NCBI RefSeq assembly: GCF_032118995.1
Contig: NC_092655.1
Location: forward strand, 14,461,223-14,525,222
Length of the DNA: 64,000 nt
Direction: 5' to 3'
Origin: Asterias amurensis
Lineage: Eukaryota
Shown: positions 13,407 through 64,000 of the stretch, piece by piece
Layout of the letters: each line of letters opens with the position of its first letter
Position numbering within the stretch: the stretch's first letter is position 1
Position numbers and translations under genes: made by a program
Notes under the pieces: generated by a model
Seen by the model: the letters and a program-made list of their open reading frames with translations, nothing else
Told to the model about the DNA's origin: nothing
Database searches by the model: none

Positions 13407-13850
<444 letters not shown>

Positions 13851-15213: not shown

Positions 15214-15246
15214 GGCGGCCCCAGAGGTTTGTTCATAGAATTTGTC

Positions 15247-26166: not shown

Positions 26167-26495
26167 AGCAGCTCTATGAAAGTTGGCCCTGATGATCCAA
26201 GTCTTGATATGGTACTGATGCGAGTACATTGTAATTTTGTTGTAGATGATTGTGACGACTGCGTGTCAACATGGACCATGAAGATGTGACGTCACAGTAC
26301 AGAAAGATACATCATGGCTTGGGGAGATAGACTTATTCCTCAGCTACTCACCAGGGTCCTAAGTGGAATTTGAAGGTATGATCTGTTTTAGCGAAGCTTG
26401 AGATGAAAGTTTAGAAATCCATACAAGTGCAGACAATAGAAATTTCTTAGGTTTCATTATTCAAACATAGTCCCATATACCTTAATAATAATAAT

Positions 26496-26816
26496 AAACA
26501 GTTCTTATATAGCGCAAATTACAAAATAAAGTCTCTAAGGGCTTCTATGATTGAAAAGATGGGTTTTAAGTTTAGATTTAAATGTTCGTAGCGTGGCACA
26601 GTCTATGATATTGTTGGGAAGAGAGTTCCAAAGTCTTGGAGAAGCATATTTGAAGGAGCGATGACCGTTGACCTTGTCTGAAAAATGTATGTTAAAGCGT
26701 GCGCCAGGAGGGTCACTGAGTGAGGGATATGCATACTTAATAAAAAGCAATTCTTGATATAGTATACACACATCTTTGACCTTTAAATCCAAATCTCGCT
26801 CTAATGAGTTTTTTCT
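26496..26816 (-). repeat. PRLWNSLP-type repeat fragment (copy B)
   Basis: ORF 26535..26792 is identical to 4479..4736. Confidence 0.4.
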
Positions 26817-27220
26817 TTCTTTTTGATCATATTTAATACAGGATTAACACGTTCGAACATCTTCAAGTTGGATGCATGAAGATGCTGTGCCACCTTATGC
26901 AACACCAATAAAACACTTGCTTCACCACCTCATCTAAGGCATCATGACAACAGATGAACATTGTCAACAGAATGAACCCAAAGAACACAAACGAGACGAA
27001 GAGGCAGACCAAGTTGGCGTTAGATGGATGACATCAGAGAATTTGGAAGCGTCACTTGGATGCGACAAGTGCAAGAACGATCAAGGTGGAATGGTGAAGA
27101 GGCCTTACTTCTGCAGTATGTAGCCACATTATCTAGATAGATATTTTGCCACTTACACAAAAATATTTACTCTGTACAAAGTCAAGACAACATAAGGTTA
27201 TTTGTAAAAGTAAACTCACT

Positions 27221-34949: not shown

Positions 34950-36547
<1,598 letters not shown>

Positions 36548-43310: not shown

Positions 43311-45316
43311 TCTTCAGGGGAATGCTGGAATGCAGGCGGCGCCGGTGGTGGAGCTTAAGTTGCGCTGGATGGATGAGCATTTGGGAGGGAAGGATCAGAG
43401 CTGTTCTTGGCCGGTGATGCGTGAACGTTGATTGCTGGCTGGATGTGAATTGCATTGGAGTGTAACATTCTTTAGGTGAGCTGCTGCTGGGAGGGTTGGC
43501 TCGAGGATTGGTGACCAGATGTCCATAATGAAGAAACCTATGTCTCGTGGAACTTTATGATGTGCTTGTATCTCGATGGCCTCCCTGACTCTGCATTGGT
43601 GTCAGGACTGTACAGGAGCTTTGAGTTCGGCTTGATTCCAATTGATGATGTGGTCGTGTTCTTGTGAATGTTTGATGATGGCTGATTTGTCGAGGTGTCC
43701 CAGTCTGCCATGTGCTTTGTGTCCTTGATTCTTGTTGAGATGCTGCGCCAGGTTTCCGCGAAGTACACTTTACTGCAATCACAGGGAATGCGGTAAACGC
43801 CTGCTTTGTCTTGAGTGTCTCGCTTGTCCTTGTGTGTGTGGAGTGATGCTTGAATCTTGTTTGGTGCTGTGTGGAAGATCTTGACTTGAGCTTGACTGAA
43901 GATACTTTGAAACTTGTGAGAAGTGTGGCCGATATCTGGGAGGGTGATTGCAGCCTTGAACTCTGGTTGTTCATCTGTTGTGAGACTTGGCTTGGGCCGG
44001 CTAAGATTGAATGTCTTGTAGTCGTTAAGTTGAAGTGAAGTCTTGATGTGGTGTAGTTCCTGCTTCAAGCTGCCTTTGTCACAGATGTTGAAGGCCCAGC
44101 AAAACCAAGGTGTTGCAGACAGCAGACTTGAAGCGAGGATGATGGAATGATGAGTTGTGAAGGTATCTATCGGGGTGTTTTGGCTTGCAATGTAACGTTT
44201 GGGCTATAGTGCCATCAGCTTGTCTTGTTACTTGGACGTCTAGGACGGAGATAGTGTTGTTTTGTTCTTGTTCCATGGTGAATTGGATGTGTGGATGTTG
44301 ACTGTTCAGGTGATGGAAGAACTCTTGGAGTGCTGTCTTGTCGTAAGGCCTAACCACAAAGGTGTCGTTAATGTAGCGGAGCTAGAGGTTAGGGCAAAGA
44401 TTGACCTTCTCGATGCTGTCAAGTTCAAACTCCTCCATGAACAAATCTGCCAGGACCGGGGATAGAGGATATCTCATGGCGGCCCCAGAGGTTTGTTCAT
44501 AGAATTTGTCTCACCACCTGAAGCCGGAAGCGTAGACGCTGGTGATGAGGAGGTCGTGGACTTGTTCTGGAGTGAGGCTTGTGCAGTCTGTCAGTGTAGG
44601 TTCGGCTTGAAGGCTTTGGTTGGCGATGTTGCATGCTTCTTCGATTGATATGTTGGTGAACAGTGACACGACATCAAAACTGACAAGGATATCAGTTGGA
44701 CGGAGATGTATGTGCTTGATGATGTCGACTAACTTGCTTGTGTTGTTGATGTGATGTTCAGTGAGGCCAACTAGTCGATGGAGGTTCTTGGTGAGGTGTG
44801 TTGCAATGTTGTAAGAAGGTGAACCCTGGGAAGCCACGATGGGGCGGAGAGGACCATCTGGCTTGTTGATCTTGGGTTGGCAGAAGAAACGTGGGCAGGT
44901 GAATGCGGATGGCTTGAGGTGACGGTACGTGGTGTTGTCTATGACTTGCGCTTGATAGAGAGTACAGAGTTTGGTGGTGAGTGTGCGTTCAATGACTGGG
45001 CTGGGGTTCCTTGGCAGGCATTGGTAGCTATTAGTTGACAGGATTTCATTTACTTGGTGGTCATAATCCGTTGTAGACATGACCATAGTGGCATTACCCT
45101 TGTCCGCTGACATGATGTGGATGGACTTGTCTTTGTGCAGGGCTCAGATATCAGCATTTTCTCGCCTGCTTGTGTAGGGTCTTGGTAACTTGGCGTTTGA
45201 AGTCTTTGCAGAATTTGGATGCGGACTTGGTTGGCGACTGTCTTGTCCAGATGTTTGAGTGCAGGTTCAGTGGACTGATTGATGTCTTTGACTTGAATCA
45301 TGCGAGGTGTGCTGGC
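43304..45316 (-). mobile_element. PLE of the N lineage (N2b). An extra stop relative to N2a splits the RT ORF into 44079..44357 and 43538..44068.
   Basis: The - strand ORFs 45050..45343, 44511..45113, 44079..44357 and 43538..44068. Confidence 0.85.
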
Positions 45317-47478
45317 GCCCACACATTGCACGATTCCAGTCAAAGATATTATTCAGTCTACCGAACCTGCGCTCAAACATCTAGACAAGACATTCGTCAA
45401 CCATATCCGCATCCAGATTCTTCAAATTCTTCAAACACCAAGTTACCAAGACCCAACACAAGCAAGCAAGAACACGCCGCTATCCGAGCCCTGCACAAAG
45501 ACAAGTCTATCCACATCATTTCAACGAACATTGGTAATGCCACCGTGTTCATGTGCACAACAGATTCTGACCACAAGGTAACCGACATCCTGTCAACTGA
45601 TACCTACCGACGCCTGCCAAGTAACTCCTGTTCAGTCATCGAACGCACCCCCACTGCTAAATTCTGCACTCTCTATCAAGCGCAGGTCATAGACAACACC
45701 ATGTACCGTCACCTCAAGCCATCCGCATCCGCCTAATCACGTTTTTTTGGCCAACCTTAAGAGCCACAAGCCAGATGTTCCTCTCCGTCCCATCGTGGCG
45801 TCCCGGGGTCACCCACCTACAATACTGCAAGACACCCCACCAAGACCCTTCATCCACTAGTTGGCCTCACTGAACATAACATTAACAACTCAAGCAAGTT
45901 CGTCGACATTATCAAATACATACATCTCCGCCCAACTGAGATCCTTGTCAGTTTTGACATCATGTCACTATTCACCAACATACCAACTGAAGGAGCATGC
46001 AACATCGCCGAACAATGCCTTCAATCCTAACCTACACTGACAGACCGCACAAGACTCACTCCAGAACAAGTCCACGACCTCCTTATCACCTGCTTCTCCG
46101 CTTTTAGATTCAGGTGGCGAGACTAATTCTACGAACAAACCTCTGGGGCCACCATGGGATCTCCTCTATCCCCGGTCCTGATGGATTTGTTCATGGAGGA
46201 GTTTTTACTTGACGGTATCAAGAACGCCAATCTTCGCCCCAACCTCAGGTTCCGCTACATTGACGACACCTTTGTGGTTTTGGCCCAACGGCAAGACAGC
46301 ACTCCAAAAGTTCTTCCATCAACTGAACAGTCAATATCTACGTATCCGATTCAACATGGAACAAGAACAAAACAATGCTATCTCCTTCCTAGGTGCCGAA
46401 GTAACAAGACAAGCTGATGGCACTCTAGCCCACACGGTACATCACAAGCCAACGCACACCAACAGATACGTTCACAACTCATTATTCCACCATCCTCGCT
46501 TCAAGTCTGCTGTCTCCAACACCTTGGTCCGTTGGACCTTGGACACCTGTGACAAGGGCAGCTTGAAGCAGGAACTACAACACATCAAGACATCACGTCA
46601 ACTTAATGGCTACAAAACTTTCAACCTCAGCGAGCCCAAGCCAAGTCTCACACCAGATGAACTACCAGAGTTCAAGGCTGCAATCTCCCTCCCAAACATT
46701 GGCCTATCTTCTCACAAGCTTCAACGTATCTTCATTCAAGCTCAAGTCAAGACCTTCCATACAGCATCAAACAAGATTCAAGCATCACTCCACACACACA
46801 AGGACAAGCAAGACACTCGAGACAAAGCCAGCGTTTACCACATTCCCTGCGATTACTGTGAAGTATACATCGTGGAACCAGGGCGCAATATCTCAACAAG
46901 AATCAAGGAACACAAAGCACATGGCACACTGGAACACCTCAACAATTCAGCCATCATCAAATATTCACACGAACACGACAGCATCATCAAGTGGAATCAA
47001 GCCAAACTCATAGCTCATGTACAGTCCTGGCACCAATGCAGAGTCGGGGAGGCCATCGATATACAAGCACGCCATACAGTTCCAGAAGACATCGGTTTCT
47101 TCATTAACGACATCTGGTCACACATCCTCAAGCCAACCCTTCCAGCAGCAGCTCACCACAAGAATGTCACACTCCAATGCACACACATCCAGCCAGCAAT
47201 CAACTCACATGCATTACCGGCCAAGAACAGCTTTGATCCATCCCGCCCAAATGCTCATCCATCCAGCACTTCTAAAGTTCGACCATCGCCTGTAGTCCAA
47301 CATTCTCCTGAAGACGAGCAGAATAAACTGTTAGAAACATCGAGACCAAACCTGCTCTTTCCAGAGCCAATACTCACCTTAAGAGGTTTGCACATGGTTG
47401 TCCCCGTAAATTCTTATTTCTCCACACCATGCAAAGCTTCAAACAATACATATCCAAGATGGGATTAAATCGCAACAA
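45317..47478 (+). mobile_element. PLE of the P lineage (P1c). This copy has TTA (L) in place of the TAA stop after MEEF, but the post-YIDD frameshift is retained.
   Basis: ORFs 45170..45736, 46154..46417 ('MGSPLSPVLMDLFMEEFLLDGIKNANLRPNLRFRYIDDTFVVLAQRQ...') and 46209..47468. Confidence 0.85.
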
Positions 47479-48671
47479 ACCTAGGTAGAATAGCTAGAGA
47501 ATGATCTCTTTATACTCAAAACTCTATTTCGAGATGCATTTTTCTCATTGTCTGTATTTTTTCTTTAATTTTTTTACGGCGACGGTGATCCATCTGCCTA
47601 TTGGAGACCAATGGAAACTGCACCATTCCAGTTGCGGCCATGAAGACATCAATGGGAGCTGTGTATCTTTGAGGAAAACGACAGGAAAAGGTAAGTTTAC
47701 TTTAAGGGACCGTAAGTTGTTGAGATTTATCCTGAAATCAAGATTATGTCTAGATTTAAAAGGGGCTCCATGCTAAAATTTAGCTTTGAAAATCACCAGT
47801 TTTCCAATTGCTAGAGTCCTCATGAAAAAAATCTAAACCTCGCAGCATGAATATTGTTCTATGGTGAAAAGTATTTAATGAGAATAGTGATTTTGTAATA
47901 ACTTGATTGGCATATATTTCAGGAGTCTGCAGTTCTGCTGGGGATGTGGTGTGCTACCTGCCGATGACCAAAAGCCATGATGCAACAGTGCCTGACTATG
48001 CGGACAGCATCCCAGCTGTCATTTAAGTGCACCAAACATAGGTAGATAGCTGGAGAATGATCTCTTTAATCTCTAAACTCTGTTGGGGAAGTGCATTTTG
48101 CTAATAGTTTGTATTTGTCGTTTATTTTTTACGGCGACGGTGAACTGGTTAAATGTTTAACCATCTGCCCATGGGAGTCCAGTGGAAACTGCACATGCCG
48201 GCCATGAAGTAATCATTGGGACCTTTGTACGCTGTGAGCAAAATGACAAGACAGGGTAAGTTTATTTTTAGTTTGATTGTTGGCAAATTTTGTGATTTTG
48301 ACTGGAGCATAACTGTTTTCCTCTTCTGGATTAGTGATGTGAAAAAAATAACATTGTATTACATAAATGTGCCAAATACAACCTTGCAACATGAACTATA
48401 ATTGTTCTACAGTAAAAAGTATTTGGTGAAAATAATTTCACTGAAATGTCTTAATTGACATATATTTCAGGAGTCTGCAGATCTGCTTGGGACACCTGCT
48501 GATAACAAGCACCAACATGAAAACAGCCGAGAGGATGCCTGCCTATGCGGACAACATCCCAGTTGTCATTGAAGTGCACCAAACATAGGTAGATAGCTAG
48601 AGAATGATCTCTTTAATCTCGAAACTTCATTTCGCAGTGCATTTCATTTGCTTGGATCCTTTTTGTTCTTA
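47479..48671 (+). repeat. Tandem M modules (copy C)
   Basis: Colinear with 2918-4110. Confidence 0.7.
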
Positions 48672-49724: not shown

Positions 49725-52700
49725 ACCAATAAAAAGTAAACAAGTGTGTTAAGGACTGTATATAAGTGGTGATTTATGTAATGAATTTTTGTATTGTAAT
49801 AATGAATTAAATATAAATTGTAACTTTTATTTTGTGTCACTCTGTAATTCAATTATTTGTTATTCTTATTGTTTACATGGTATCTGTTCTGGGGTACCCT
49901 CACATGGTGGCCACCATGTTTTTTTTACTGGTTACTATATGAAGACATGTAAATATTGTGACACACTTGGGGTTTAGTAACTCTTGTTAAAGTTTGTAAT
50001 GTCAAAGGTAATGACCTTGTGTGTGTTTGAGTACTCATTAACCAGGTTTATTATTACAAAGGTCTAGACATTGTTCATGGTATTTGTTAGGGATAATCAG
50101 TCCAGTTTTTGAGTACTCTTAACGACGTTAAACAAGTGTGTTAAGGACTGTATATAAGTGGCGATTTATGTAATGAAGTTTTGTATTGTAATAATGAATT
50201 AAATATAAATTGTAACTTTTGTTTTGTGTCACTCTGTAATTCAATTATTTATTATTTTAATTATTAACATGGTATCTCTTCTGGGGTACCCTCACATGGT
50301 GGCCACCATGTTTTTTTACTGGTTACTATATGAATACATGTAAATATTGTGACACACTTGGGGTTTAGAACTCTTTTTAAAGTTTGTTATGTCAAAGGTC
50401 ATGACCTTGTGTGTGTTTGAGTACTCATTAACCAGGTTTATTATTACAATGGTCTAGACATATTGTTCATGGTATTTATTAAGGATAATCAGTCCAGTTT
50501 TTGAGTACTCTTAACGACGTTAGAAAAATGTGTTAAGGACTGTATATAAGTGGTGATTTATGTAATGAAGTTTTGTATTGTAATAATGAATTAAATATAA
50601 ATTGTAACTTTTATTTTGTGTCACTCTGTAATTCAATTATTTGTTATTCTAATTGTTTACATGGTATCTGTTCTGGGGTACCCTCACATAGTGGCCAGCA
50701 TGTTTCTTTACTGGTTACTATATGAAGACATGTAAATATTGTGACACACTTGGGGTTTAGTAACTCTTGTTAAAGTTTGTAGTATCAAAGTTTTTGAGTA
50801 CTCTTAACGACGTTAAACAAGTGTGTTAACGACTGTATATAAGTGGTGATTTATGTAATAAAGTTTGGTATTGTAATAATGAATTAATTATAAATTGTAA
50901 CTTTTATTTTGTGTCACTCTGTAATTAAATTATTTATTATTTTAATTATTAACATGGTATCTCTTCTGGGGTACCCTCACATGGTGGCCACCATGTTTTT
51001 TTACTGGTTACTATATGAAGACATGTAAATATTGTGACACACTTGGGGTGTAGTAACTCTTGTTAAAGTTTGTAATGTCAAAGGTCATGACCTTGTGTGT
51101 GTTTGAGTACTCATTAACCAGGTTTATTATTACAAAGGTCTAGACATTGTTCATGGTATTTGTTAGGGATAATCAGTCCAGTTTTTGAGTACTCTTAACG
51201 ACGTTAAACAAGTGTGTTAAGGACTGTATATAAGTGGCGATTTATGTAATGAAGTTTTGTATTGTAATAATGAATTAAATATAAATTGTAACTTTTGTTT
51301 TGTGTCACTCTGTAATTAAATTATTTATTATTTTAATTATTAACATGGTATCTCTTCTGGGGTACCCTCACATGGTGGCCACCATGTTTTTTTACTGGTT
51401 ACTATATGAAGACATGTAAATATTGTGACACACTTGGGGTTTAGAACTCTTTTTAAAGTTTGTTATGTCAAAGGTCATGACATTGTGTGTGTTTGAGTAC
51501 TCATTAACCAGGTTTATTATTACAATGGTCCAGACATATTGTTCATGGTATTTATTAAGGATAATCAGTCCAGTTTTTGAGTACTCTTAACGACGTTAGA
51601 AAAATGTGTTAAGGACTGTATGTAAGTGGTGATTTATGTAATGAAGTTTTGTATTGTAATAATGAATTAAATATAAATTGTAACTTTTATTTTGTGTCAC
51701 TCTGTAATTCAATTATTTGTTATTCTAATTGTTTACATGGTATCTGTTCTGGGGTACCCTCACATAGTGGCCAGCATGTTTCTTTACTGGTTACTATATG
51801 AAGACATGTAAATATTGTGACACACTTGGGGTTTAGTAACTCTTGTTAAAGTTTGTAGTATCAAAGTTTTTGAGTACTCTTAACGACGTTAAACAAGTGT
51901 GTTAACGACTGTATATAAGTGGTGATTTATGTAATAAAGTTTGGTATTGTAATAATGAATTAATTATAAATTGTAACTTTTATTTTGTGTCACTCTGTAA
52001 TTCAATTATTTGTTATTCTAATTGTTTACATGGTATCTATTCTGGGGTACCCTCACATGGTGGCCACCATGTTTTTTTACTGGTTACTATATGAAGACAT
52101 GTAAATATTGTGACACACTTGGGGTTTAGTAACTCTTGTTAAAGTTTGTTATGTCAAAGGTCATGACCTTGTGTGTGTTTGAGTACTCATTAACCAGGTT
52201 TATAATTACAAAGGTCTAGCCATTGTCCATGGTATTTATATGGATAATCAGTCCAGTTTGTGAGTACTCTAAGAGTCTTAACGACGTTAAAAAAGTGTGT
52301 TAAGGACTGTATATAAGTGTTGATTTATGTAATGAAGTTTTGTAACGTAATAATGAATTAATTATTAATTGTAACCTTTTATTTTATGTCACTCTGTAAT
52401 TCAATTATTTGTTATTCTAATTGTTTACATGGTATCTATTCTGGGGTACCCTCACATGGTGGCCACCATGTTTTTTTACTGGTTACTATATGAAGACATG
52501 TAAATATTGTGACACACTTGGGGTTTAGTAACTCTTGTTAAAGTTTGTTATGTCAAAGGTCATGACCTTGTGTGTGTTTGAGTACTCATTAACCAGGTTT
52601 ATAATTACAAAGGTCTAGCCATTGTCCATGGTATTTATATGGATAATCAGTCCAGTTTGTGAGTACTCTAAGAGTCTTAACGACGTTAAAAAAGTGTGTT

Positions 52701-55060
52701 AAGGACTGTATATAAGTGTTGATTTATGTAATGAAGTTTTGTAACGTAATAATGAATTAATTATTAATTGTAACCTTTTATTTTATGTCACTCTGTAATT
52801 CAATTATTTGTTATTCTAATTGTTTACATGGTATCTATTCTGGGGTACCCTCACATGGTGGCCACCATGTTTTTTTACTGGTTACTATATGAAGACATGT
52901 AAATATTGTGACACACTTGGGGTTTAGTAACTCTTGTTAAAGTTTGTTATGTCAAAGGTCATGACCTTGTGTGTGTTTGAGTACTCATTAACCAGGTTTA
53001 TAATTACAAAGGTCTAGCCATTGTCCATGGTATTTATATGGATAATCAGTCCAGTTTGTGAGTACTCTAAGAGTCTTAACGACGTTAAAAAAGTGTGTTA
53101 AGGACTGTATATAAGTGTTGATTTATGTAATGAAGTTTTGTAACGTAATAATGAATTAATTATTAATTGTAACCTTTTATTTTATGTCACTCTGTAATTC
53201 AATTATTTGTTATTCTAATTGTTTACATGGTATCTATTCTGGGGTACCCTCACATGGTGGCCACCATGTTTTTTTACTGGTTACTATATGAAGACATGTA
53301 AATATTGTGACACACTTGGGGTTTAGTAACTCTTGTTAAAGTTTGTTATGTCAAAGGTCATGACCTTGTGTGTGTTTGAGTACTCATTAACCAGGTTTAT
53401 AATTACAAAGGTCTAGCCATTGTCCATGGTATTTATATGAATAATCAGTCCCGTTTGTGAGTACTCTAAGAGTCTTAACGACGTTAAAAAAGTGTGTTAA
53501 GGACTGTATATAAGTGTTGATTTATGTAATGAAGTTTTGTAACGTAATAATGAATTAATTATTAATTGTAACCTTTTATTTTATGTCACTCTGTAATTCA
53601 ATTATTTGTTATTCTAATTGTTTACATGGTATCTATTCTGGGGTACCCTCACATGGTGGCCACCATGTTTTTTTACTGGTTACTATATGAAGACATGTAA
53701 ATATTGTGACACACTTGGGGTTTAGTAACTCTTGTTAAAGTTTGTTATGTCAAAGGTCATGACCTTGTGTGTGTTTGAGTACTCATTAACCAGGTTTATA
53801 ATTACAAAGGTCTAGCCATTGTCCATGGTATTTATATGGATAATCAGTCCAGTTTGTGAGTACTCTAAGAGTCTTAACGACGTTAAAAAAGTGTGTTAAG
53901 GACTGTATATAAGTGTTGATTTATGTAATGAAGTTTTGTAACGTAATAATGAATTAATTATTAATTGTAACCTTTTATTTTATGTCACTCTGTAATTCAA
54001 TTATTTGTTATTCTAATTGTTTACATGGTATCTATTCTGGGGTACCCTCACATGGTGGCCACCATGTTTTTTTTACTGGTTACTATATGAAGACATGTAA
54101 ATATTGTGACACACTTGGGGTTTAGTAACTCTTGTTAAAGTTTGTTATGTCAAAGGTCATGACCTTGTGTGTGTTTGAGTACTCATTAACCAGGTTTATA
54201 ATTACAAAGGTCTAGCCATTGTCCATGGTATTTATATGGATAATCAGTCCAGTTTGTGAGTACTCTAAGAGTCTTAACGACGTTAAAAAAGTGTGTTAAG
54301 GACTGTATATAAGTGTTGATTTATGTAATGAAGTTTTGTAACGTAATAATGAATTAATTATTAATTGTAACCTTTTATTTTATGTCACTCTGTAATTCAA
54401 TTATTTGTTATTCTAATTGTTTACATGGTATCTATTCTGGGGTACCCTCACATGGTGGCCACCATGTTTTTTTACTGGTTACTATATGAAGACATGTAAA
54501 TATTGTGACACACTTGGGGTTTAGTAACTCTTGTTAAAGTTTGTTATGTCAAAGGTCATGACCTTGTGTGTGTTTGAGTACTCATTAACCAGGTTTATAA
54601 TTACAAAGGTCTAGCCATTGTCCATGGTATTTATATGGATAATCAGTCCAGTTTGTGAGTACTCTAAGAGTCTTAACGACGTTAAAAAAGTGTGTTAAGG
54701 ACTGTATATAAGTGTTGATTTATGTAATGAAGTTTTGTATCGTAATAATGAATTAATTATTAATTGTAACCTTTTATTTTATGTCACTCTGTAATTCAAT
54801 TATTTATTATTCTAATTATTAACATGGTATCTGTTCTGGGGTACCCTCACATGGTGGCCACCATGTTTTTTACTGGTTACTATAGGAAGACATGTAAATA
54901 TTGTGACACACTTGGGGTTTGTAGTAACTCTTTTTCAAAGGTCATGACCTTGTGTGTGTTTGAGTACTCATTAACCAGGTTTATTATTACAAAGGTCTAG
55001 ACATTTTCCACGGTATTTATTAAGGGTATGCAGTCCATTTTTGGAGTACTCTTAACGACG
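49725..55060. repeat. 390-bp satellite, about 14 monomers in copy C. A block of 6 near-identical monomers spans about 52290-54700.
   Basis: The monomer period is about 390 bp (for example 52290, 52680, 53070, 53460, 53850, 54240). Array length is 5.3 kb here, against 2.2 kb in copy A and 2.5 kb in copy B. Confidence 0.9.
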
Positions 55061-55870
55061 TTATTTGATAACAAGGTTATGACATTGTTTATGGTGTTTA
55101 CATGTATATACGGTTTCGAGTACTCATTAACGAGGTTTTGTAATTACAAAGGTCATGCCATTTTCTATGGTTTTTATTAAGGGTGTTTGATTCAGGGAAT
55201 GACCGGGTTGGTGGCTGGCGCTGTAAGGTTGACATTGTTTGCAGTGTTAATTATGGGTGTTTGAGTACTCATTAACGATGTATTATGATCTCTTTTCACT
55301 GTTAATTGTGGGGTGGGAGATGACAACCTTCACGTGGTCCACCCTGTTGTTAACTAATTGTCATCAAACAATAGAGCTTTATAACCATGTTTATAAAGCT
55401 CTATGCACCAAACCAATTTGTTAATGACATTGTGATGACATTTTCTTTGGTGTTTATTTAGAGAGTTTGAGTACTCATTAAGGTTGACATTGTTTGCAGT
55501 GTTAATTTAGTGTGTTTGAGTACTCATTAACGATGTATTAGGATCTCTTTTAACTGTTAATTGTGGGGTGGGAGATGACAACCTTCACGTGGTCCACCCT
55601 GTTGTTAACTAATTGTCATCAAACAATAGAGCTATATAAACAAAGCTCTATGCAGCAAAAACAAAATTTTAATTACAAGGTCATGACATTTTCCTTGGTG
55701 TTTATCTAGGGGATTTGAGTACTCATTAACGATGTAGATTTTAAACGATCTCTTTAAACTGTTATTTGTGGGGTGGGAGGTGACAACCTTCACGTGGTCC
55801 ATCCTGTTGTTAACTAATTGTCATCAAACATTAGAGCTATGAATATACAAGTTTAAAGCTCTATACATCA
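55061..55870. repeat. Partial monomer plus the 250-bp satellite in 3 copies (copy C)
   Basis: Colinear with 7331-8150. Confidence 0.85.
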
Positions 55871-58800
55871 AACCATACCCTTTTCATGAAATGCCCGCAG
55901 TAGATTTGAACAAATGTGTGGAAATGTTGTTTGTTCTTTTATGCAAATCACTTGTTTATTTTGTAAGATGTTACGGGAAACAGCAGGGTCACGGCAAACG
56001 TGCGGCGTGCGCCGTCTCCGTTTTTAAGTAAACTCATTTTGGGGAAGATGTATGCTGTTTAGTGTAACCCGTTCGTATGTACGCAAAAGAAACAAAACAA
56101 AGCGCCCGCCTAGCGCGTTAGCGCTGCTGGAATAGAACGCGCGTATGTCATGTAACCCTGACGTCATAATCAATTCCATAAAAAAAATTACGAAATTGTA
56201 ACATTTTGCCCATTTTTTTGACACCGAAAAAATATGTTTCCCGCAGTAAAAATGTAAAAAGCTAACAAATGCAAAATTCTTCAAGATACTAAAAATATGC
56301 ATTAAAATCTCTAACGTAATGGGAAACAGTCAGGGTCACGGCAAACGTGAAGGGTTCATCAAAAAGGAGTTATATTCATAACACACTTTGCGACGGTTTT
56401 TCTTTAAAATGTGCATACGGTTAAACAAATTTGACAACCCTTCATTTAGCAAAACATCTCAAGATAATCCTCCTTCATTTTAAGTGTTGTTCAAATATTT
56501 CCCACCAAGCGGAGCGTTTTACTGACGTGCTTATGAACACTCGGATTTTCTCATGAATTCTCAAAGGGTCTGGGAGCGCCTATTCTGATCACGATTTTGC
56601 AAAGAAACGCTGCGCGTCAGCTTCATTATCTCGTAGTTGTGCACTGACTGAGCCAAAAGGGAATTAATGACTTGATGAACTTTTAAGAATGTTCATGATC
56701 AGTCCATGCATCAAACAGTTCATGACATGTTCATCACAGCAGTTCATGAACCAAGTTCATGAACTGATCCATTCCATTAATGGACAAGTTAAAAAAGTTT
56801 TGTGTGTTTTCATAAAAGTCAATTTATAAGCTTTCTTTGCAGTTAATGAACTCTAATGAATAATCATAACTCAACTGTGTATTAACTTAACTCCCTGTTT
56901 ACAAATTGGTATACATTTTTCTTCTAACTTTAATTATTTACAGTTTCTGTATGTCAGTGATAGTAGTGATGTATCATTAGTATCATGATTACCAAGCACT
57001 TTACTCTGACAATTTTTTTTCCTGCCCTTTAGGTGTACAGTATAAATTAGTTTTAAAAATTTCAATTTATTTGCCAGGTTAACATTACGCATTTATAAAA
57101 TAAAGACATTGATCATGTGAAACAAGAAACAACTGTGTGATGTAGAATGATCATTGTAAAGTAATAGAAAACACCCTGCCCTGTAAAACACTCTGCATTG
57201 TTTTTTTGTCAAATGAAAATGTGCCTGTGTGAATTATGATTAATTTTGTTCACCTAAAAGAACTCGGGCAAAATCCGAGTCGGTTTACCTTGATTTTGAA
57301 ACTTGGCACGGTGACAGTTTTATTAAAGAGATAGTTACACAGTAAGTAGTAGTGTTTGTTTTGAAGAACATCGTTGGTTATCAACTCTTATTCTAGAAAT
57401 TAAAACGTCACTTTGTATACAACATAAATTTGTTATGCAACAGTCTCTTTAAATCCTCCATAACAACACATCGAACAAATGGAAGAAACAAATCAAGCAG
57501 GGACAATCTTCATAATTTGCACAAATTTAAAGTTGTCATTTTTGCCACTATTTACACAAATGTATGTATACATAAGCCGTGATAGTAGTAAAATTTACGT
57601 ATATAATTTTCACCTAAAATCTTCAAGCAAATGTTTCTTGAAACAACCCCAAACAAAAGTGTCAATAACATAGACAAAAGGAATGACGGGAGGTTTTATA
57701 TGGCCTCAACATTATTACTTATTTTTCTACCTTGTAGAAATGCCGAAAACTACAAACTTTTTGCATTAACAAGTGCAAATAACCAGTGGAGCCTTACGTG
57801 TTTCTAAGTTTTGCTCTTTGCTTGGCAAATAAAACCATATTTGTTGTAATCTAGCGACTGTTTACATCGCGCACAGAGAGGTAAAAGATTTGCCACGATT
57901 TTACGGACACCTTGAAAACAGGACCTCCTCCTTATCGCACATATTATTACAGTTAATCGCACACATATTACAATTTATTGCAAAATATTACATTTTTTGC
58001 ATACATAAATGAATATCGCACATTATGTGACAATACTGTGACGTCATACTCTTATAAGAGATCAGCGATTATGCAAGACCAGCGCTTTTTGGATCCATCA
58101 GTTTCTTTGTTATTTGGGTGCGGTGATTGCATGCTCCTTGGCTAATTTAAATGTGAATAACCCAGTTGTGAAAGATTTACAATAGTTTTTCTGTAAGCTT
58201 GTGATTGAGTGGAAATTTCCGTTATGGTCCAGTAGACTCGCTGATATGCCACGGTTGGGAGTGCTTGTTTGTGGACCTATGTGCTGTGCTTTTCTTTGCT
58301 TTGCTGTCCTGTTTTGTGAGTACTGGTTTCTTCGATATTTCCAGGTTTCTTTAGGACTCCTAGATTTATAACGACTACAATATAACCGTATTGAGTGTTT
58401 TGAAACTGGATCTCAAAAAAATAAGTCTCGAAGTGTGGAATAATTCACAGACGCGGCACATTGCTTGCCGTTCTGTGGCAATGGAAAAAAAGAATTATAT
58501 AAATTAAACAAATTTGTATAGGACATAGTGCATATTATACATAATTTATAAATTATACTATATAAATTCATAGTTTTTATAGGAATATATATTCCCACAG
58601 GTTCCTCATACCTATGTTTAATAAATCGTCCTCTCCTTTCATGGACCATTCTTTGTCCTCATCACTTTACTCTCATTGGTTCATAGCCACCCACAAAGAC
58701 TTTGATTTACTAGAATCTAACCCTTTTTTCTGGTTCCTTCCTTTAAAACCTTTCTCCTCTTTTTCTAGGGAAATGTAATTGTTTGAACATTCATAAAGCA

Positions 58801-59354
58801 TTAATATTAAGTTTAAATATTAAGTTTAAATATATATAAAGTTTACAATAGTAATTATTAAACAAAAAAGTTTTAACAAAAAAAAAATTAACAAAATGTA
58901 TATAAAAACAATTTTTTTAATGAAAGTCTCTGATTGGTCAAAACCCAGTCACATGTGAGAGTGTTAACGGTGGTATAAATACCGGCTTTGGAAAATAGCG
59001 AAGAAGTGGCCACTTAACCAGCATACATTGTGTAAACCTTGCGCGTTGCACTGTATCGCACGCTTATTTATATCCCTGTTAGTTTTATTGCAACTTCGCG
59101 CACTTACGCGTACGCGCGCTGAAAATGTATCAATTTTGAGTGCGCGCGTGTAACATGTGCGCGCGTATAAACTGACGCCGAGCTCATGCGCGCGTTTTAA
59201 TGCACAAGGAACAGCTATCGTCCAATCATTTGCCTCCTTTGACCCCAGTGAAGGCGCTGAACAGATCGTTAATTAAAAGAGTCACTGGTCTCAAAGATCA
59301 GTAATGTGATTAACGCACGAAAGAGATTGGAACCATCAAAAGCTCAAAATATGA

Positions 59355-59895
59355 GTAGGATTCTGGCCCTATGCTTTAGCACTGTGTAGGATTCTGTCCC
59401 TATGCTTTAGCATTTTTTTTGAGTAGGATTCTGGCCCTATGCTTTAGCACTGTGTAGGATTCTGTCCCTATGCTTTAGCACTGTGTAAGATTCTGTCCCT
59501 ATGCTTTAGCATTGAGTAGGATTCTGGCCCTATGCTTTAGCATTGAGTAGGATTCTGGCCCTATGCTTTAGCACTGTGTAGGATTCTGGCCCTATGCTTT
59601 AGCATTGTGTAGGATTCTGGCCCTATGCTTTAGCACTGTGTAGGATTCTGTCCCTATGCTTTAGCACTGTGTAGGATTCTGTCCCTATGCTTTAGCATTG
59701 ACTAGGATTCTGGCCCTATGCTTTAGCATTGAGTAGGATCAGTGCTGGCCCTATGCTTTAGCACTGTGTAGGATTCTGTCCCTATGCTTTAGCACTGTGT
59801 AGGATTCTGTCCCTATGCTTTAGCACTGTGTAGGATTCTTCCCCTATGCTTTAGCACCGTGTAGATTCTGTCCCTATGCTTTAGCATTGAGTAGC
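59355..59895. repeat. Minisatellite of about 17 copies of a 31-bp unit 'gtaggattctg(g/t)ccctatgctttagca(c/t)tg(t/a)'
   Basis: Read directly. It starts exactly where homology to the higher-order repeat unit ends. An inverted core copy 'gagtagagtagaatcctactt' lies at about 60063. Confidence 0.9.
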
Positions 59896-60213
59896 ATTCT
59901 CTGACACTTTCGTCATAAAAACTCATGCTATTCTGCAAACACATTATAATGATCCATGATTAACAAGGCAGAGGGCGCCCTATCTAGCCCTCCGTTGGTT
60001 TCAGCAATCATTGGTTTTGTACAGTACTATATGGAGTAGAGCAGAAAGCACAGAGGTCAATGAGTAGAGTAGAATCCTACTTCGCCTGTGTGGTAAAATT
60101 TTTGTTAACATATCTTGCAGGGTATAATCGAGCGAGCGAGAGTGTGTTGAGTGAGACGGGGAGACTGACAGTTTTTTTCCCCCAAAAACACATTTTTGGT
60201 CGATTCCTATATC

Positions 60214-60222
60214 TATATAAAG
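60214..60222 (+). promoter_or_regulatory. TATA box 'TATATAAAG', about 33-41 bp upstream of the ATG at 60255
   Basis: 'cctatatctatataaagtggggagagaaacattaaagtctactgcgaaaATGGCT'. Confidence 0.5.
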
Positions 60223-60254
60223 TGGGGAGAGAAACATTAAAGTCTACTGCGAAA

Positions 60255-60305
60255 ATGGCTTGCAATGTTTTGACATGTCTGACGAAAATGCGAGTGGCTG
60301 CAAAG
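60255..60305 (+). CDS. Exon 1 (coding part) of an NAD-dependent isocitrate dehydrogenase subunit gene (IDH3 beta/gamma-like). It encodes MACNVLTCLTKMRVAAK and has the donor AAG|GTAAGA.
   Basis: The ATG follows a TATA box. A canonical donor lies at 60306. The reading frame joins exons 2 and 3 in phase 0, giving an N-terminal presequence upstream of the conserved IDH3 block. Confidence 0.5.
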
Positions 60306-60387
60306 GTAAGATAAGAAGTTCAGAATCAAAAAGTTAATAAAACGAGAAACTGGTAACTAAACTAAATGAGCCTGATTAAAAAACTTT

Positions 60388-61059
60388 GGGGTCTCATATT
60401 TAGGGCCTTTTTAACGCTTTTCGTTTTTCAAATCAGATCGGTGCGCATGACAACCCAACAAGGTGGGACAAACAATTCTGTGGAAGGGGTGTTACAAGGG
60501 TACTACTACACAACGCGTTGGACAGGTGTTGAATATAGTTCGTAGTTTCACCACACGTGGCGGTGCTGTTCGAGAAGAGAGCACACCTGTCCAACGCGTT
60601 GTGTTGTAGTAGCCTTGTAACACCCCTTCCACAGAATTGTTTGTCCCACCTCGTTGGGTTGTCTTGCACACCGATCAGTGGTCATGCGCTGTGAGTGTGA
60701 GGTCATCGACTGATACCAGCAAGCACAGCGCTGGTGACCCACTACTAAAGCGTTGAACATATTGTGAGAGGTCACAGACGTGACCCCGACATGACAGAAC
60801 GTGTTGCCGTGACAACGAAGCAACGGACAGCAATCGTAATTACCGAGTAGAAAATTGCCTTTTTTGAAGAAATTATTGAACGTAACTCAACAAAAGGAAA
60901 ATACAAGCATTATGAATGTATTGAGTAGGATGGGGAAAGCTTTAGTGTACAGTACACATGAAAATTCAGTTCTGGCTGGCTAACGGTCCCAAAACTTTCA
61001 CCCATCAAGGCTGATTTGACAAACGTATAGTGTTAAAAAGCCCCTTAATTTGAGACCCC
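60388..61059. mobile_element. Candidate non-autonomous DNA transposon (MITE-like) bounded by imperfect 28-bp TIRs 'ggggtctcatatttagggcctttttaac' and 'gttaaaaagccccttaatttgagacccc'
   Basis: The TIRs lie at 60388-60415 and 61033-61059, with about 24 of 28 positions matching. No clear TSD is seen, which may mean TA or none. It lies in IDH3 intron 1. Confidence 0.4.
60436..60680. repeat. Near-perfect inverted repeat (hairpin) with arms of about 95 bp at about 95% identity and a loop of about 53 bp
   Basis: The left arm 'gatcggtgcgcatgacaacccaacaaggtgggacaaacaattctgtggaaggggtgttacaagggtactactacacaacgcgttggacaggtgt' is the reverse complement of the right arm '...acacctgtccaacgcgttgtgttgtagtagccttgtaacaccccttccacagaattgtttgtcccacctcgttgggttgtcttgcacaccgatc'. 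Confidence 0.85.
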
Positions 61060-62094
61060 TATAAGGCTCACAGGGGAGCCTTATAGTTTCTAGAAGTAGA
61101 CAGGGAAGCTAAACGAACGCACCCACTGCCACTTACACTTGCACGTGACATGTACTTATCGTAGCATCATACAATATCGACCCTCATATGTTTTCGAACC
61201 CCCAACTTTGATTATCGTTTACCGCGAGATTGTGCAAGCTGCACCGGTTGCAGAATCTATGCAGTTTACTCACGGTCTGTATTTTTATTAGGCTTAATCA
61301 TGCTGAGAACAAAGTTTCCTGACGTTGGTTGCTCAAATATTTATAAAATGATAGATTTTTGGTACAAAATACTAGTGCATTATGATGCCAACATTCAATT
61401 GAGTCAAAGAAACATCATCCAACCTCAAAAGTTCAAAACAAAATTACTATCTGCAAGATTGAGTTTCATTCTTTTTTAGTCACTAAACTAATAACATTTG
61501 TGGGCGACTTTAATTACTAAGGGGTAACTTTGTCAGAAGGCGACATTACCAGTGGGCGACTTTGTAACGACCCGGGGGCAAGCCAGTAATAGGGGGTTAT
61601 AGCAGGGGGTGACTTTGTTTGGGGCAAGCTGGCTAGGGGACAAGATGACCCTGAGCCCCCCCTCTTTAATCCTCCATCCTCCTGTGGGCTGACGGGATCG
61701 TCAAACACTGTCAAAGGAAGATGGAGGGCTATGACTTTAGTTATCATAGAAGAAGGTCCTCTACTGGTAGGGCGTTGAGTCCCTGTCTCGCTTGGTGGAG
61801 TATGGAGAGTCTGTTGGTAGTTCCTCTGTCCTTTAACCCTTCTACTGATACACCATTCAAAACCATTCAAAATTCACTAACGTTTACAACCCCATCGGTT
61901 TTGTACACACATGACAGTACCATTTGAGCAGGGTTGATGATAAGCTGTACTATCACTCAAAACCATTCAGATGGTTTCGAGCTGTGCATAACCTGTACAT
62001 GTGTGCATTACCATAGCCGAATGGTTTCAGATGGTCAGCAAGCTGTTTAACAAATCCTGTAGTGTCTATGACATAGTGTGTGGTAACCTCGTAG

Positions 62095-62565
62095 CCAAGG
62101 CGAGATTGGTCACCCCCACACCGCCTGGTATCACTCAGTCATGACAAAGTGGGATCCTTGATGCACCACTTAAAACAATCCTCATGGGGTTCTATACCAG
62201 CTGCACCACCATTCAGGATTTTAGTTATACTGCTATGACGTGAGTAGTCGTTTACTACAAATCTGGCAGCCCTGTGTTGAACCTGTTCAATTTTCATTGA
62301 TGAGAATCTGTCTGGGTGGATCCCAAACAGAAGATGAATATATTCAAGTAAGGGATGGACCAGAGTAAGACAAGCATTTTCTTTGAAGTGTTTGGGACAG
62401 GAGTAGAGGTTCCTTTTAATGAAACCGAGAGATCTATTTACGGATGCAGTAACTATGTTAGGTGTTTATTCTAGGAAATATTGTTGGTGAGCTCAACTCC
62501 AAGATAAGTGTGATGCTTATTTGTCTCTAGTGTTGACTGACAGAGGGTGTAATCACAGAGCATGG
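62095..62565 (-). mobile_element. Degenerate 3' fragment of a non-LTR retrotransposon (CR1/L2/Rex-like LINE ORF2 C-terminal region)
   Basis: The - strand translation 'CQSTLETNKHHTYLGVELTNNIS' and 'LVHPLLEYIHLLFGIHPDRFSSMKIEQVQHRAARFVVNDYSRHSSITKIL' matches the conserved LINE ORF2 tail '...YLGV.ID..L.W...LVRPHLEYC...VQRRAARF(V)...DY.R.SSVT.ML'. It contains stops and lies inside IDH3 intron 1. Confidence 0.6.
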
Positions 62566-62665
62566 GACTTTTTGGCATTTAGGCGCAAAAGAGAACACAA
62601 CTTACAAGAAAACATGATTTAGGGCCTACCTATTTAATATCATTTTGCCTAATTTTGTTTTTCAG

Positions 62666-62725
62666 TTGCCGTCAAGTCAATTGGTGAGAGCTCTGTCAAC
62701 TGGCCAATATTGTATGAAACCTGCA
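62666..62725 (+). CDS. Exon 2 of the IDH3-like gene (LPSSQLVRALSTGQYCMKPA)
   Basis: Acceptor 'ttttgtttttcag|TTGCCG' and donor 'CCTGCA|gtaagt'. The length is 60 nt (phase 0 to 0). Confidence 0.5.
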
Positions 62726-63413
62726 GTAAGTTTGCATTTGTTAATAACAAGTCAATAGGAAAGGCATGATTCATGGAGAGAGAAAACAAGTCCATGTTAG
62801 AGTAATTATTTTCATAAATACAAGTTAAATTAAAGGAACATTACAGACTTGGTTTTGCTAGCAAAAAATTTGCTGGCAGTGTAAGCACTTTATGTAATCC
62901 ACCATATACATTTAAACTGAAACTGACAAACGTGTAGAAGTTTGAGATTGATCGGCCATCTGGGTCACAAGAGAATAGTGAAAATTTTTGCATTGCATTG
63001 ATGCCAAAACGAAAATGAATAAACTGTAAACTCAAAACGCAAAATTAGATTATTTATTTTTTATCAAATATGAAATTTCAGACAGAAATATTTCAAGGGA
63101 TATTTTCTACTATCATTATCATTAGACGGTGTAAGTTTTATGTAAATTTGTGATCTTCACGAGTTTTGTTTATTACCAATTCTGGAACGTTCCTTTAAGA
63201 CAGTAAACTGTCCAAATATAATATAGCAATGGCTGTTGGTTCCAGTTCAATCATGTGACCTGTGACATGAGAAAATGTATCAAATTTGTCTTCACGAGCA
63301 TCCTGAAATTCGCCCCTGGTATACCTTTCATCATCTTTGATATCGACAATCATGTGAAGATGATGTCTCTATATAAAATAAACCAAATACCGAATTTGAA
63401 TATTTTTTGTCAG

Positions 63414-63553
63414 ACACCAGCTGTTAAGCCAGAAACCAGAAGGACTGTGACGTTAATCCCAGGAGATGGGGTAGGACCAGAGCTCATGCAGTCCGTACGG
63501 GAGGTTTTTAAAGGTGCTGGGGTACCTGTAGATTTTGAAGAGCTTTTTGTCAG
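63414..63553 (+). CDS. Exon 3 of the IDH3-like gene ([46 protein letters not shown]), coordinates +/-2
   Basis: '[17 protein letters not shown]...F..A.VPVDFEE' is the conserved N-terminal block of mature NAD-IDH regulatory subunits. Compare human IDH3B/IDH3G 'TVTM(L/I)PGDG(V/I)GPELM...VPV(E/D)F(Q/E)E'. The acceptor is 'tttttgtcag|ACACC' and the donor is 'GTCAG|gtaggt'. Confidence 0.65.
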
Positions 63554-64000
63554 GTAGGTCATTTATTTTACCAGCCTAGCTACATGTACCATGGGCAGCG
63601 TGCCATATCGATACCTCTCGTCACAAACCACTGGAATGGATGTCATGAGAAACAACGCTGATTGGCTCATGAAGTTGGTTTTTGCATCTATAGATGTAAA
63701 GTAAATATTTGCATGTTGATCACGCCCACATTTTTTATGGCACGAACACGCTTTTAAAAACAAAAACACATGTATGCATGCGTAGAAAGGATTTAATATA
63801 GATTCTAGCACATTTTAATGAACACTTTCCAGGGCTTATGATCGAGTAAGGCATGCTGGGAAAAAATGGCACGGTGAGATCGATCCCCTGGGAACGAGGT
63901 TGCACCGATCCTACAAGAATGGCTACCCTTTAGACAGAATCATCTTACAGGATCCTTGTCTATGTATATCATTCATCAAAAGTCACTTAACCACCATAAA

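Follow-up and report, generated by a model that had tools for sequence, protein, structure and literature searches.

A 22-kb tandem repeat array ends at a 31-bp minisatellite close upstream of the probable first exon of an IDH3 regulatory-subunit gene

The window analyzed, the whole stretch of 64,000 nt, contains a tandem repeat array, a 31-bp minisatellite, a short unique flank with promoter-like motifs and the start of an IDH3 gene, in that order (Table 1). The promoter region and exon 1 together form an island of unique DNA of ∼490 bp, flanked by the minisatellite on one side and by a MITE-like element of intron 1 on the other. The latter starts 82 bp past the exon 1 donor and has 49-nt terminal inverted repeats (86% complementary) and an internal foldback with 94-nt arms (60436-60529 and 60583-60676; 95% complementary).

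Table 1. Features of the window between the repeat array and exon 2 of the IDH3 gene
Feature	Position	Strand	Basis
Tandem array, part in window	1-59354	.	Self-BLAST, TRF, ORFs, Pfam domains of homologues
CpG-rich, promoter-like end-of-unit module, ∼440 bp	58915-59354	+	CpG count, TATA scan
Array/flank junction	59352-59354	.	3-nt TGA common to unit end and many minisatellite unit ends
31-bp minisatellite, consensus GTAGGATTCTGGCCCTATGCTTTAGCACTGT	59355-59900	+	TRF, unit map
Unique 354-bp 5' flank, putative IDH3 promoter and leader	59901-60254	+	Sequence, TATA scan
ATTGG motif in flank	60010-60014	+	Sequence
TATAAT motif in flank	60123-60128	+	Sequence
TATA motif TATATAAA	60214-60221	+	TATA scan
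Coding exon 1 (predicted), 17 codons, MACNVLTCLTKMRVAAK	60255-60305	+	Splice logic, phase, Kozak context
Intron 1, 3.1 kb, repeat-rich	60306-63413	+	Exon limits, repeat search
MITE-like element in intron 1	60388-61059	.	Repeat search, self-BLAST
Exon 2, IDH3 gamma/beta type	63414-63556	+	PDB sequence search, alignment with homologous ORFs

The gene described as IDH3-like in the initial annotation could be defined more closely. In a PDB sequence search, exon 2 matched human IDH3G (E value, 8e-12), IDH3B (5e-11) and IDH3A (6e-7), aligning to mature residues 8 to 51 within the N-terminal Iso_dh core, including VPVDFEE. Judged by these matches, exon 2 clearly belongs to IDH3, and to the regulatory gamma/beta type rather than to the catalytic alpha subunit. 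Both of its borders (acceptor, ttttttgtcag/ACA; donor, AG/GTAGGT) fit the alignment with homologous ORFs, and a homologue carries the name 'isocitrate dehydrogenase (NAD+)' at JGI. No close relative turned up in the collections searched: the protein encoded by exons 1 and 2 returned only fragments from other eukaryotes, with identities of 82% or less, and the contigs of two of these fragments had no DNA in common with the window outside exon 2. Identity was at most 74% in a metagenome search for the locus, and an exact look-up of 10 ORFs of the tail found none.

Since no ATG precedes the conserved core in exon 2, the start codon must lie upstream. The candidate first exon begins with an ATG at 60255-60257 in a strong Kozak setting (AAAATGG) and ends at a phase 0 donor (AAG/GTAAGA, at 60306). 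Of the 271 GTs in 59355-63413, this donor scored highest, and its phase agrees with that of exon 2. The encoded peptide is basic and free of acidic residues, like the start of a mitochondrial presequence; the first 27 residues of the protein, of which the window shows exons 1 and 2 only, include 6 basic residues and 1 acidic residue. The assignment of exon 1 is thus well supported by its donor, phase, Kozak context and presumptive presequence.

The role of the TATA box as the promoter of this exon is less certain. The motif is followed by an Inr-like sequence, CTACTGC (60244-60250), which matches YYANWYY at 6 of 7 positions. Its A, at 60246, is 32 nt downstream of the first T of the TATA box. 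This spacing is canonical, and a TATAWAWR element some 28 to 33 nt upstream of an Inr-like site is the sequence mark of a focused core promoter. With an observed/expected CpG ratio of 0.68, the putative promoter is not a CpG island. It is possible, though we think it on balance unlikely, that the assignment of exon 1 and its promoter is wrong or incomplete, with transcription starting upstream of 60214 (a start after the TATAAT at 60123, for instance, would make the leader ∼100 nt long) or from another first exon, and with the TATA box as a chance motif. A start ∼30 nt after 60214 would leave a leader of ∼9 nt, which is unusually short, and the ATG is preceded by 192 nt free of ATG (60063-60254), a length reached by only 1.9% of the gaps between ATGs in the window, as in a real leader; this stretch would allow an upstream start. 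In addition, the motif by itself carries little weight, as TATAWAWR occurs 99 times in the window versus 30.6 times expected from shuffling. Against a wrong assignment stand the canonical spacing of the TATA and Inr-like motifs and the best-scoring, phase-compatible donor, which indicates that the ATG and the 3' end of exon 1 are likely to be right for any start site. An upstream start codon is disfavored too: the Kozak context of the in-frame ATG at 60060 is poor, and translation from there would give an acidic N terminus unlike a presequence. A short-leader start codon of the TISU type is not claimed here; GAAAATGGCTTG fits what we take to be the TISU consensus, SAASATGGCGGC, at only 7 of 12 positions.

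Upstream of the flank, TRF detected a repeat with a period of 31, 17.3 copies, 89% matches and a score of 806. When parsed, it yielded 17 units (one of 37 nt, one of 35 and one of 30) plus a 10-nt stub, GTAGCATTCT. Near-exact matches to the unit (three mismatches or fewer) numbered 15 in the window versus 0.00 expected, all of them inside 59355-59856. Pattern and profile searches found the minisatellite nowhere else in the window, and scanning JGI metagenome contigs for the exact pattern yielded 0 matches. The units vary at position 12 (G or T) and in their ends (CACTGT or CATTGA). In the unit map, a block of variants, a-c-d-e, recurs with a higher-order period of six units (∼186 to 192 bp), and the best internal self-match, of 93.4%, was obtained at a shift of 192 bp. 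The region thus combines the features of a minisatellite or VNTR, namely, many head-to-tail copies and variant repeats in higher-order blocks, which mark unequal exchange. Only one CpG was found in its 546 bp (observed/expected ratio, 0.04); this very low value results from a unit that itself contains no CpG and carries no information on methylation.

A different origin for the minisatellite is suggested by an 11-bp inverted match at 60071-60081, a length reached in 3 of 2,000 shuffles of a 500-bp region, and by a 12-bp direct match at 60920-60931: a transposon of the MITE kind, bounded by AGTAGGATTCT (59354-60081), would have cut the array short on insertion, and the minisatellite would have arisen by expansion of one of its ends. 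However, a profile search of the whole window with nhmmer gave these matches E values of 2.6 and 46, neither of them significant. There is no target-site duplication and no second copy in the window, and the array is not resumed after 60081; we therefore regard such an insertion as highly improbable. Decayed extra minisatellite units downstream were likewise rejected (nhmmer E value of 2.6 or worse).

The array itself was resolved by self-BLAST into units of 22.1 to 22.5 kb (period, 22,055 to 22,505 bp), arranged head to tail and 99.1 to 99.7% identical, of which the window holds ∼2.6 copies. Positions 1-6525 matched 22056-28578 (99.7%), 6231-28971 matched 28677-51473 (99.1%), and 6537-11618 matched 54272-59354 (99.1%). 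The left edge of the window cuts the array, whose left end lies beyond it. Every unit contains two 4.6-kb Penelope-like inverted dimers, satellites of 293, 392 and 399 bp, (ATTATT)n and (GCTGTC)n microsatellites, and ∼5 kb of AT-rich DNA. The internal 4.6-kb sub-repeat showed 98.2% identity, and the mutual identity of the Penelope-like inverted arms (14044-18054 and its copies, 4 kb) was only 85%; these arms adjoin the (ATTATT)n and (GCTGTC)n tracts at 13407-13829. The copy number of the satellites differs among units, with the 399-bp repeat present eight times in the last unit alone, which indicates that exchange is ongoing.

Homologues of the ORF at 16945-18204 bear RVT_1, GIY-YIG and HTH_animal domains (PF00078, PF01541 and PF26215, the last listed as HTH_animal), and one of them is named 'GIY-YIG superfamily endonuclease'. 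A Pfam scan made directly on the Penelope-like and LINE-like ORFs of the window gave 0 matches, so the Penelope-like identity rests on the homologues and on the architecture. The copies are decayed, with broken ORFs. In keeping with its kilobase-scale head-to-tail units of high identity, the array is a young tandem segmental duplication (macrosatellite) whose source already contained decayed Penelope-like elements and satellites, and it is not a classical satellite. An array of ribosomal DNA or of other RNA genes was rejected, as Rfam at the gathering level gave 0 matches over the whole window; scans by E value of 58400-61200 and 34000-59400 gave chance-level matches only. Rfam found no hammerhead ribozyme in the array, and a retrozyme identity for the 293- to 399-bp satellites, which had no Rfam match, was rejected as well.

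Long, near-identical repeats are error-prone in assemblies, and a mis-join, or an overexpansion of the array or of its junction with unique DNA, could in principle have produced the observed structure. However, the units differ by 0.3 to 0.9% and in satellite copy number, like real paralogous copies, and the window contains no N. Furthermore, contig NODE_3366 of ENA assembly ERZ4235598 provides an independent 6.3-kb match to the array unit (18880-25202, 97.6% identity; the match covers the unit and not the junction), and the repeat is thus not confined to the present assembly. The nearest homologue bearing a name came from Asterias rubens. An assembly artifact is accordingly very hard to credit.

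The array ends sharply. A three-way alignment of unit copies showed 70 of 70 bases identical up to 59354 and unrelated sequences beyond, where the inner units go on with CCCATTCGGCTCGG and the terminal unit goes on with GTAGGATTCTGG. The last bases of the unit are ...ATATGA, and ...CATTGA closes many of the minisatellite units, so the breakpoint is ambiguous by 3 nt. From 59355 to 64000, the DNA has nothing in common with the array according to self-BLAST, and the array therefore does not resume in the 3.7 kb of the gene that lie within the window. The initial annotation had placed the end of homology at 59354, about 17 copies of a 31-bp unit from 59355 onward, a TATA box at 60214 and an ATG at 60255, all within 900 bp. 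The positions were all recovered here, the gap between the end of the minisatellite and the TATA box being 314 bp; the end of the array, the minisatellite, the TATA motif and what is very probably the first exon do lie within 900 bp of each other.

We consider it probable, although far from certain, that this arrangement is a passive structural juxtaposition of array, minisatellite and gene. The starting state would have been a repeat-laden stretch of ∼22.5 kb just upstream of the gene for the IDH3 regulatory subunit, in which old Penelope-like dimers had inserted beside microsatellites, together with 293- to 399-bp satellites and an AT-rich spacer. Tandem segmental duplication and unequal exchange would recently have turned this stretch into a head-to-tail array. 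The right edge of the amplified DNA would coincide with the first base of a 31-bp minisatellite that already existed, at this one locus only, and the minisatellite itself would owe its growth to unequal exchange in which blocks of several units took part. The gene would have kept an intact and compact control region, made up of the 354 bp of unique DNA and the 51-nt first coding exon, with the minisatellite on one side and the MITE-like element of intron 1 hemming it in on the other. The order of old insertions followed by nested duplications is suggested by the identities of 85% for the dimer arms, 98.2% for the sub-repeat and 99.1 to 99.7% for the units.

Pure chance leaves unexplained why the breakpoint and the minisatellite coincide to the base, and a causal link between them may exist. 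Tandem repeats tend to stall replication forks and to break, and the minisatellite could itself have set the breakpoint: a stalled fork or a double-strand break at its edge would have led to a template switch or an unequal exchange with sequence ∼22 kb upstream, which made the first duplication that was amplified later, and the minisatellite would then be the cause of the end point of the array. A template switch might show as microhomology between the left flank of the array and ...AAAATATGA. This proposal agrees with passive juxtaposition in all other respects. It would account for an array that ends at the first base of the first unit, with an overlap of only the 3-nt TGA, and it accords with the unequal exchange undergone by the minisatellite itself, apparent in its higher-order block and in its units of 37, 35 and 30 nt. 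On the other hand, the junction made by the duplication is the inner one (11618/11619), and its partner flank is not part of the window; the events fit equally well in the opposite order, the minisatellite expanding once the array had formed; and a single locus provides no statistics. We thus hold a breakpoint set by the minisatellite to be a tentative and somewhat doubtful alternative.

Each unit of the array is closed by a CpG-rich module, other copies of which lie at 11180-11618 and 33625-34062. The module of the terminal unit is oriented toward the minisatellite and IDH3, and it carries an ATTGG at 58933, TATAAATA at 58974 and three copies of TGCGCGCGT (at 59141, 59158 and 59187). It has 30 CpG in 454 bp, an observed/expected ratio of 1.45 versus 0.62 for the array, and no RNA family was found in it with Rfam. 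A CpG-rich module facing the gene could matter, and it counts against an entirely passive reading. If, with its CCAAT and TATA motifs, it were a live promoter that fired rightwards across the minisatellite and reached the IDH3 promoter at a distance of 1.25 kb, the array would be an alternative upstream promoter or a source of transcriptional interference for IDH3, the read-through reaching the gene would be tuned by the length of the minisatellite, and the output of a housekeeping gene would depend on the copy number of a neighboring repeat. We consider such activity very unlikely.

Nor did the functional interpretation of the initial annotation fare as well as its geometry: the idea that the interval acts as a barrier against a heterochromatin-like array, or that the gene is subject to position effects, found no support in anything measurable in the sequence. 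What speaks for a silenced array, with the minisatellite and promoter interval protecting IDH3 or with IDH3 under position effects, is only the geometry, that is, an array 900 bp from the ATG, together with a sharp change in the observed/expected CpG ratio, from 1.45 in the last 454 bp of the array to 0.04 in the minisatellite and 0.68 in the promoter, and with the established ability of active housekeeping promoters to halt the spread of silencing by themselves. However, the heterochromatic state of the array is an assumption. Its CpG ratio of 0.62 equals that of the whole window (0.62) and is near that of the unique tail (0.53), and thus gives no signal either way. As for known barrier determinants, ARAGORN found 0 tRNA genes and Rfam found no family in the boundary and promoter interval. 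The sole CTCF-like site there (59965-59979) has three mismatches to the presumed consensus, CCASYAGRKGGCRSY, a level reached 56 times in the window versus 28 expected; a CTCF-type site at 59965 was therefore rejected as no better than chance. A scan for bacterial-type promoters and terminators, irrelevant here, found nothing. Moreover, intron 1 is also filled with repeats, so the gene already tolerates them on both flanks. Taken together, these data point to no dedicated boundary function, and we regard a barrier or a position effect as unlikely.

The layout is real, but the sequence gives no reason to see in it anything beyond an ordinary accident of genome structure; as it stands, it has little significance. 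It does offer an example of a gene start tightly boxed in, with ∼490 bp of unique DNA and a 22-kb repeat array beyond, in which the edge of a tandem duplication coincides exactly with a minisatellite. The locus would gain interest if population or chromatin data showed that the size of the array or of the minisatellite changed IDH3 expression. Similarly, a breakage mechanism would be indicated if many duplication breakpoints in this genome sat at minisatellite edges.

Several known systems invite comparison. Chromatin barrier insulators include tRNA/TFIIIC barriers, the CTCF/USF-type chicken HS4, and the sea urchin ArsI and sns5 elements. The present locus resembles them in position only, with a repeat block and an active-type gene separated by a short interval, and it differs from tRNA- and CTCF-type barriers in that the interval has no tRNA gene and its CTCF-like match is at chance level. 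The contents of the array are closer to a published pattern, as Penelope-like elements form inverted, 5'-truncated partners and show an insertion bias for microsatellites (PMC8557442). Like those complexes, the units here contain 4-kb inverted dimers with reverse-transcriptase-like and GIY-YIG-like ORF fragments, beside microsatellites. In contrast, the copies here are decayed and without a hammerhead ribozyme detectable by Rfam, and the 22-kb periodicity stems from segmental duplication and not from retrotransposition.

For its part, the minisatellite recalls the human INS VNTR, which has a 14- to 15-bp unit and lies upstream of the insulin gene at a distance of ∼0.6 kb (PMC3012191). The two units are unrelated in sequence, and no second copy of the present locus was found in the collections searched, but both are short-unit arrays with variant repeats close to a gene; the one described here has 17 units of 31 bp, and its distance is 314 bp to the TATA motif and 355 bp to the ATG. 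On a larger scale, the human D4Z4 macrosatellite has 3.3-kb units, and position effects on neighboring genes have been proposed for it. The unit here is 22.5 kb long, is a patchwork of dead transposons and satellites without an intact gene, and is visible in only ∼2.6 copies, in which it differs from D4Z4. Both arrays nevertheless consist of kilobase-scale head-to-tail units of very high identity with internal repeats, and in both cases a single-copy gene lies beside the end of the array.

The first 59,354 nucleotides of the window consisted of head-to-tail repeats of a 22.1- to 22.5-kb unit. Self-comparison of the window gave identities of 99.7% between 1-6525 and 22056-28578, and of 99.1% both between 6231-28971 and 28677-51473 and between 6537-11618 and 54272-59354. 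The array extends past the left edge of the window. Ribosomal DNA or another RNA gene array was ruled out, with no Rfam match at the gathering level and no tRNA by ARAGORN in the window.

Each unit carries two copies of an inverted dimer, together with satellites, microsatellites and AT-rich DNA. The domains RVT_1, GIY-YIG and HTH_animal were found in homologues of a 419-aa open reading frame (ORF) of this region (16945-18204); a direct Pfam search with the dimer ORF fragments yielded no match, and Rfam reported no hammerhead ribozyme at the dimers. An inverted dimer beside a microsatellite is a published signature of Penelope-like elements, for which an insertion bias toward microsatellites has also been described (PMC8557442). 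Decayed dimers of this type directly adjoin (ATTATT)n and (GCTGTC)n at 13407-18443, 20588-25202, 35854-40950 and 43092-47707, which fits that bias. The ranking of identities (85% for dimer arms, 98% for sub-repeats and over 99% for units) indicates that the retroelements are old and dead and were copied afterwards as passengers of nested segmental duplications. The array is thus a tandem segmental duplication of recent date in DNA rich in repeats, not a classical satellite.

The copy number of the 293/392/399-bp satellite block varies among units (51878-55052 versus 5177-6818 and 27233-29264), and in the terminal unit alone a 399-bp variant is repeated eight times (98% identity). Such variation between units indicates that unequal exchange inside the array went on after unit duplication. 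Independent data, from this species or a sister species, also contain the repeat: an ENA metagenome contig (ERZ4235598 NODE_3366, 6651 bp) showed 97.6% identity to 18880-25202 over 6.3 kb. About eight more ENA contigs came from the clusters of P0012 and P0015; the ENA metagenome assemblies with this 6.3-kb sub-repeat therefore include host DNA of this species or a sister species. The nearest named homologue of an array ORF was a protein of the sea star Asterias rubens (68% identity), a weak hint that the source is an echinoderm.

Features of the array, its boundary and the adjoining IDH3 gene
Feature	Position	Description
Segment of 4.6 kb		2 copies per unit, 98.2% identical; each an inverted dimer
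Inverted dimer arms	e.g., 14044-18054	85% identical
Satellites of 293, 392 and 399 bp		within each unit (TRF)
(ATTATT)n and (GCTGTC)n microsatellites		within each unit (TRF)
AT-rich DNA		~5 kb per unit
CpG-rich block	58915-59354, 11180-11618, 33625-34062	last ~440 bp of every unit; rightward-pointing
MITE-like nested repeat	60388-61059	starts 82 bp after exon 1 donor
Terminal inverted repeats	60388-60436 and 61011-61059	49 nt, 86% complementary
Near-perfect foldback	60436-60529 / 60583-60676	94-nt arms; enclosed by the 49-nt inverted termini
IDH3 exon 2	63414-63556	encodes 46 residues; acceptor ttttttgtcag/ACA, donor AG/GTAGGT

The initial annotation had placed the end of the array homology at 59354, and a three-way alignment bore this out: the last 70 positions were identical (70/70) in two inner copies and the terminal copy, and the sequences were unrelated beyond, where the inner copies read CCCATTCGGCTCGG and the terminal copy GTAGGATTCTGG. 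Because the last bases of the array unit (...ATATGA) and of many minisatellite units (...CATTGA) coincide in part, the breakpoint can be placed only to within 3 nt (59352-59354). No array homology was detected by self-comparison in 59355-64000; the array is not resumed in the visible part of the gene. Past the junction, the inner units include GGTCGTTGGTTGAAATCCCGC on the minus strand of 11619-11812 and in the equivalent from 34063, which on visual inspection resembles the T-arm/B-box in the head of a tRNA-derived SINE; neither ARAGORN nor Rfam made a call there.

The block ending each unit contained 30 CpGs in 454 bp (observed/expected, 1.45), along with ATTGG, TATAAATA and three TGCGCGCGT-TAA motifs. 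Neither an RNA family nor an ORF accounted for it. The block looks like a rightward promoter, and that of the terminal unit is directed at the IDH3 start over a distance of 1.25 kb. Transcription from this candidate promoter, if it is active, might cross the minisatellite and enter the IDH3 gene, a speculative scenario that we consider highly improbable.

The roughly 17 copies of a 31-bp repeat described right after the array were recovered by TRF at 59355-59900 (period 31, 17.3 copies, 89% matches) and resolved in a unit map into 17 units, three of them of deviating length (37, 35 and 30 nt), with the stub GTAGCATTCT after the last. Depending on the unit, position 12 is G or T and the 3' end reads CACTGT or CATTGA; the block of variants a-c-d-e repeats every six units, and the strongest internal self-match (93.4%) lay at a 192-bp shift, a pattern typical of growth by unequal exchange. 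All 15 matches of the unit in the window fell within the minisatellite (0 expected), and the unit was absent from JGI metagenome contigs. The minisatellite contains one CpG in 546 bp. Its derivation from an expanded MITE end was rejected: matches of 11 bp (inverted, 60071-60081) and 12 bp (direct, 60920-60931) were present, but a profile search scored them at E 2.6 and E 46, and there was no target-site duplication and no resumption of array homology.

The assignment of the downstream gene to IDH3 stood. Exon 2 matched human IDH3 gamma (mature residues 8 to 51) with an E value of 8e-12, beta with 5e-11 and alpha with 6e-7, an order that marks it as a regulatory-type subunit. In alignments with homologous eukaryote ORFs, similarity began just past the acceptor and stopped at the donor, and homologues lacking the intron read on into SEV..., in agreement with the AG+N prediction. 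Since no ATG precedes the conserved core within exon 2, translation must begin further upstream. The region 59355-63413 holds 74 open phase-0 ATG-to-GT segments; among its 271 GTs, the donor AAG/GTAAGA at 60306 scored highest with an approximate position weight matrix. The ATG at 60255, where it had been reported, lies in a strong Kozak context, with A at -3 and G at +4, and opens a frame encoding MACNVLTCLTKMRVAAK; with both exons joined, the first 27 residues include 6 basic and 1 acidic and are presequence-like. This putative exon 1 is well supported by sequence logic. Upstream, its frame stays open over 82 codons, as far as an ATG at 60060 that has a poor context and would begin an acidic peptide; the leader may be longer, or the protein may have an isoform extended at the N terminus (60060-60305).

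For its part, the proposed TATA promoter was only partly upheld. The motif TATATAAA is at 60214-60221, as claimed, and the A of an Inr-like CTACTGC (60244-60250) lies 32 nt after its first T, the canonical TATA-Inr spacing. The assignment is weakened, however, by the leader of only ~9 nt that this start predicts, by the frequency of TATAWAWR (99 in the window, 30.6 expected) and by the absence of ATG from the 192 nt before the start codon (60063-60254), a length reached by only 1.9% of the gaps between ATGs. This ATG-free stretch and a second TATA-like motif, TATAAT, at 60123 make a transcription start ~100 nt further upstream a serious alternative. The promoter region does not qualify as a CpG island (GC, 0.41; observed/expected CpG, 0.68).

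The MITE-like element of intron 1 showed no clear target-site duplication. With repeats on both sides, promoter and exon 1 form a ~490-bp unique island (59901-60387). Also in intron 1, the minus strand of 62139-62578 holds short ORFs (…QHRAARFVVNDYSRHSSITKIL… and …YLGVELTNN…) that by eye resemble a LINE ORF2 C terminus; Pfam gave no match to them.

Nothing in the window shows the array to be heterochromatin, as had been suggested. None of the known barrier determinants was present: ARAGORN and Rfam found no tRNA gene or RNA family, and the CTCF-type consensus was matched only with 3 mismatches at 59965, one of 56 such matches in the window (28 expected). No close relatives of the locus were found in the collections searched. 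The reported layout was confirmed; for or against a barrier or a position effect at IDH3, which could be proposed for any gene beside repeats, the results did not speak, and this interpretation stays unproven. The most likely account, which we moderately favor, is passive juxtaposition: DNA upstream of IDH3 would have been recently duplicated in tandem. The coincidence, to the base, of the duplication edge with the first minisatellite unit is the one feature calling for explanation; the minisatellite may have set the breakpoint through breakage or the stalling of replication forks, an idea that is unlikely but compatible with passive juxtaposition. With its minisatellite, tandem segmental duplication and compact promoter, the locus shows only features of familiar kinds and is an ordinary example of them.
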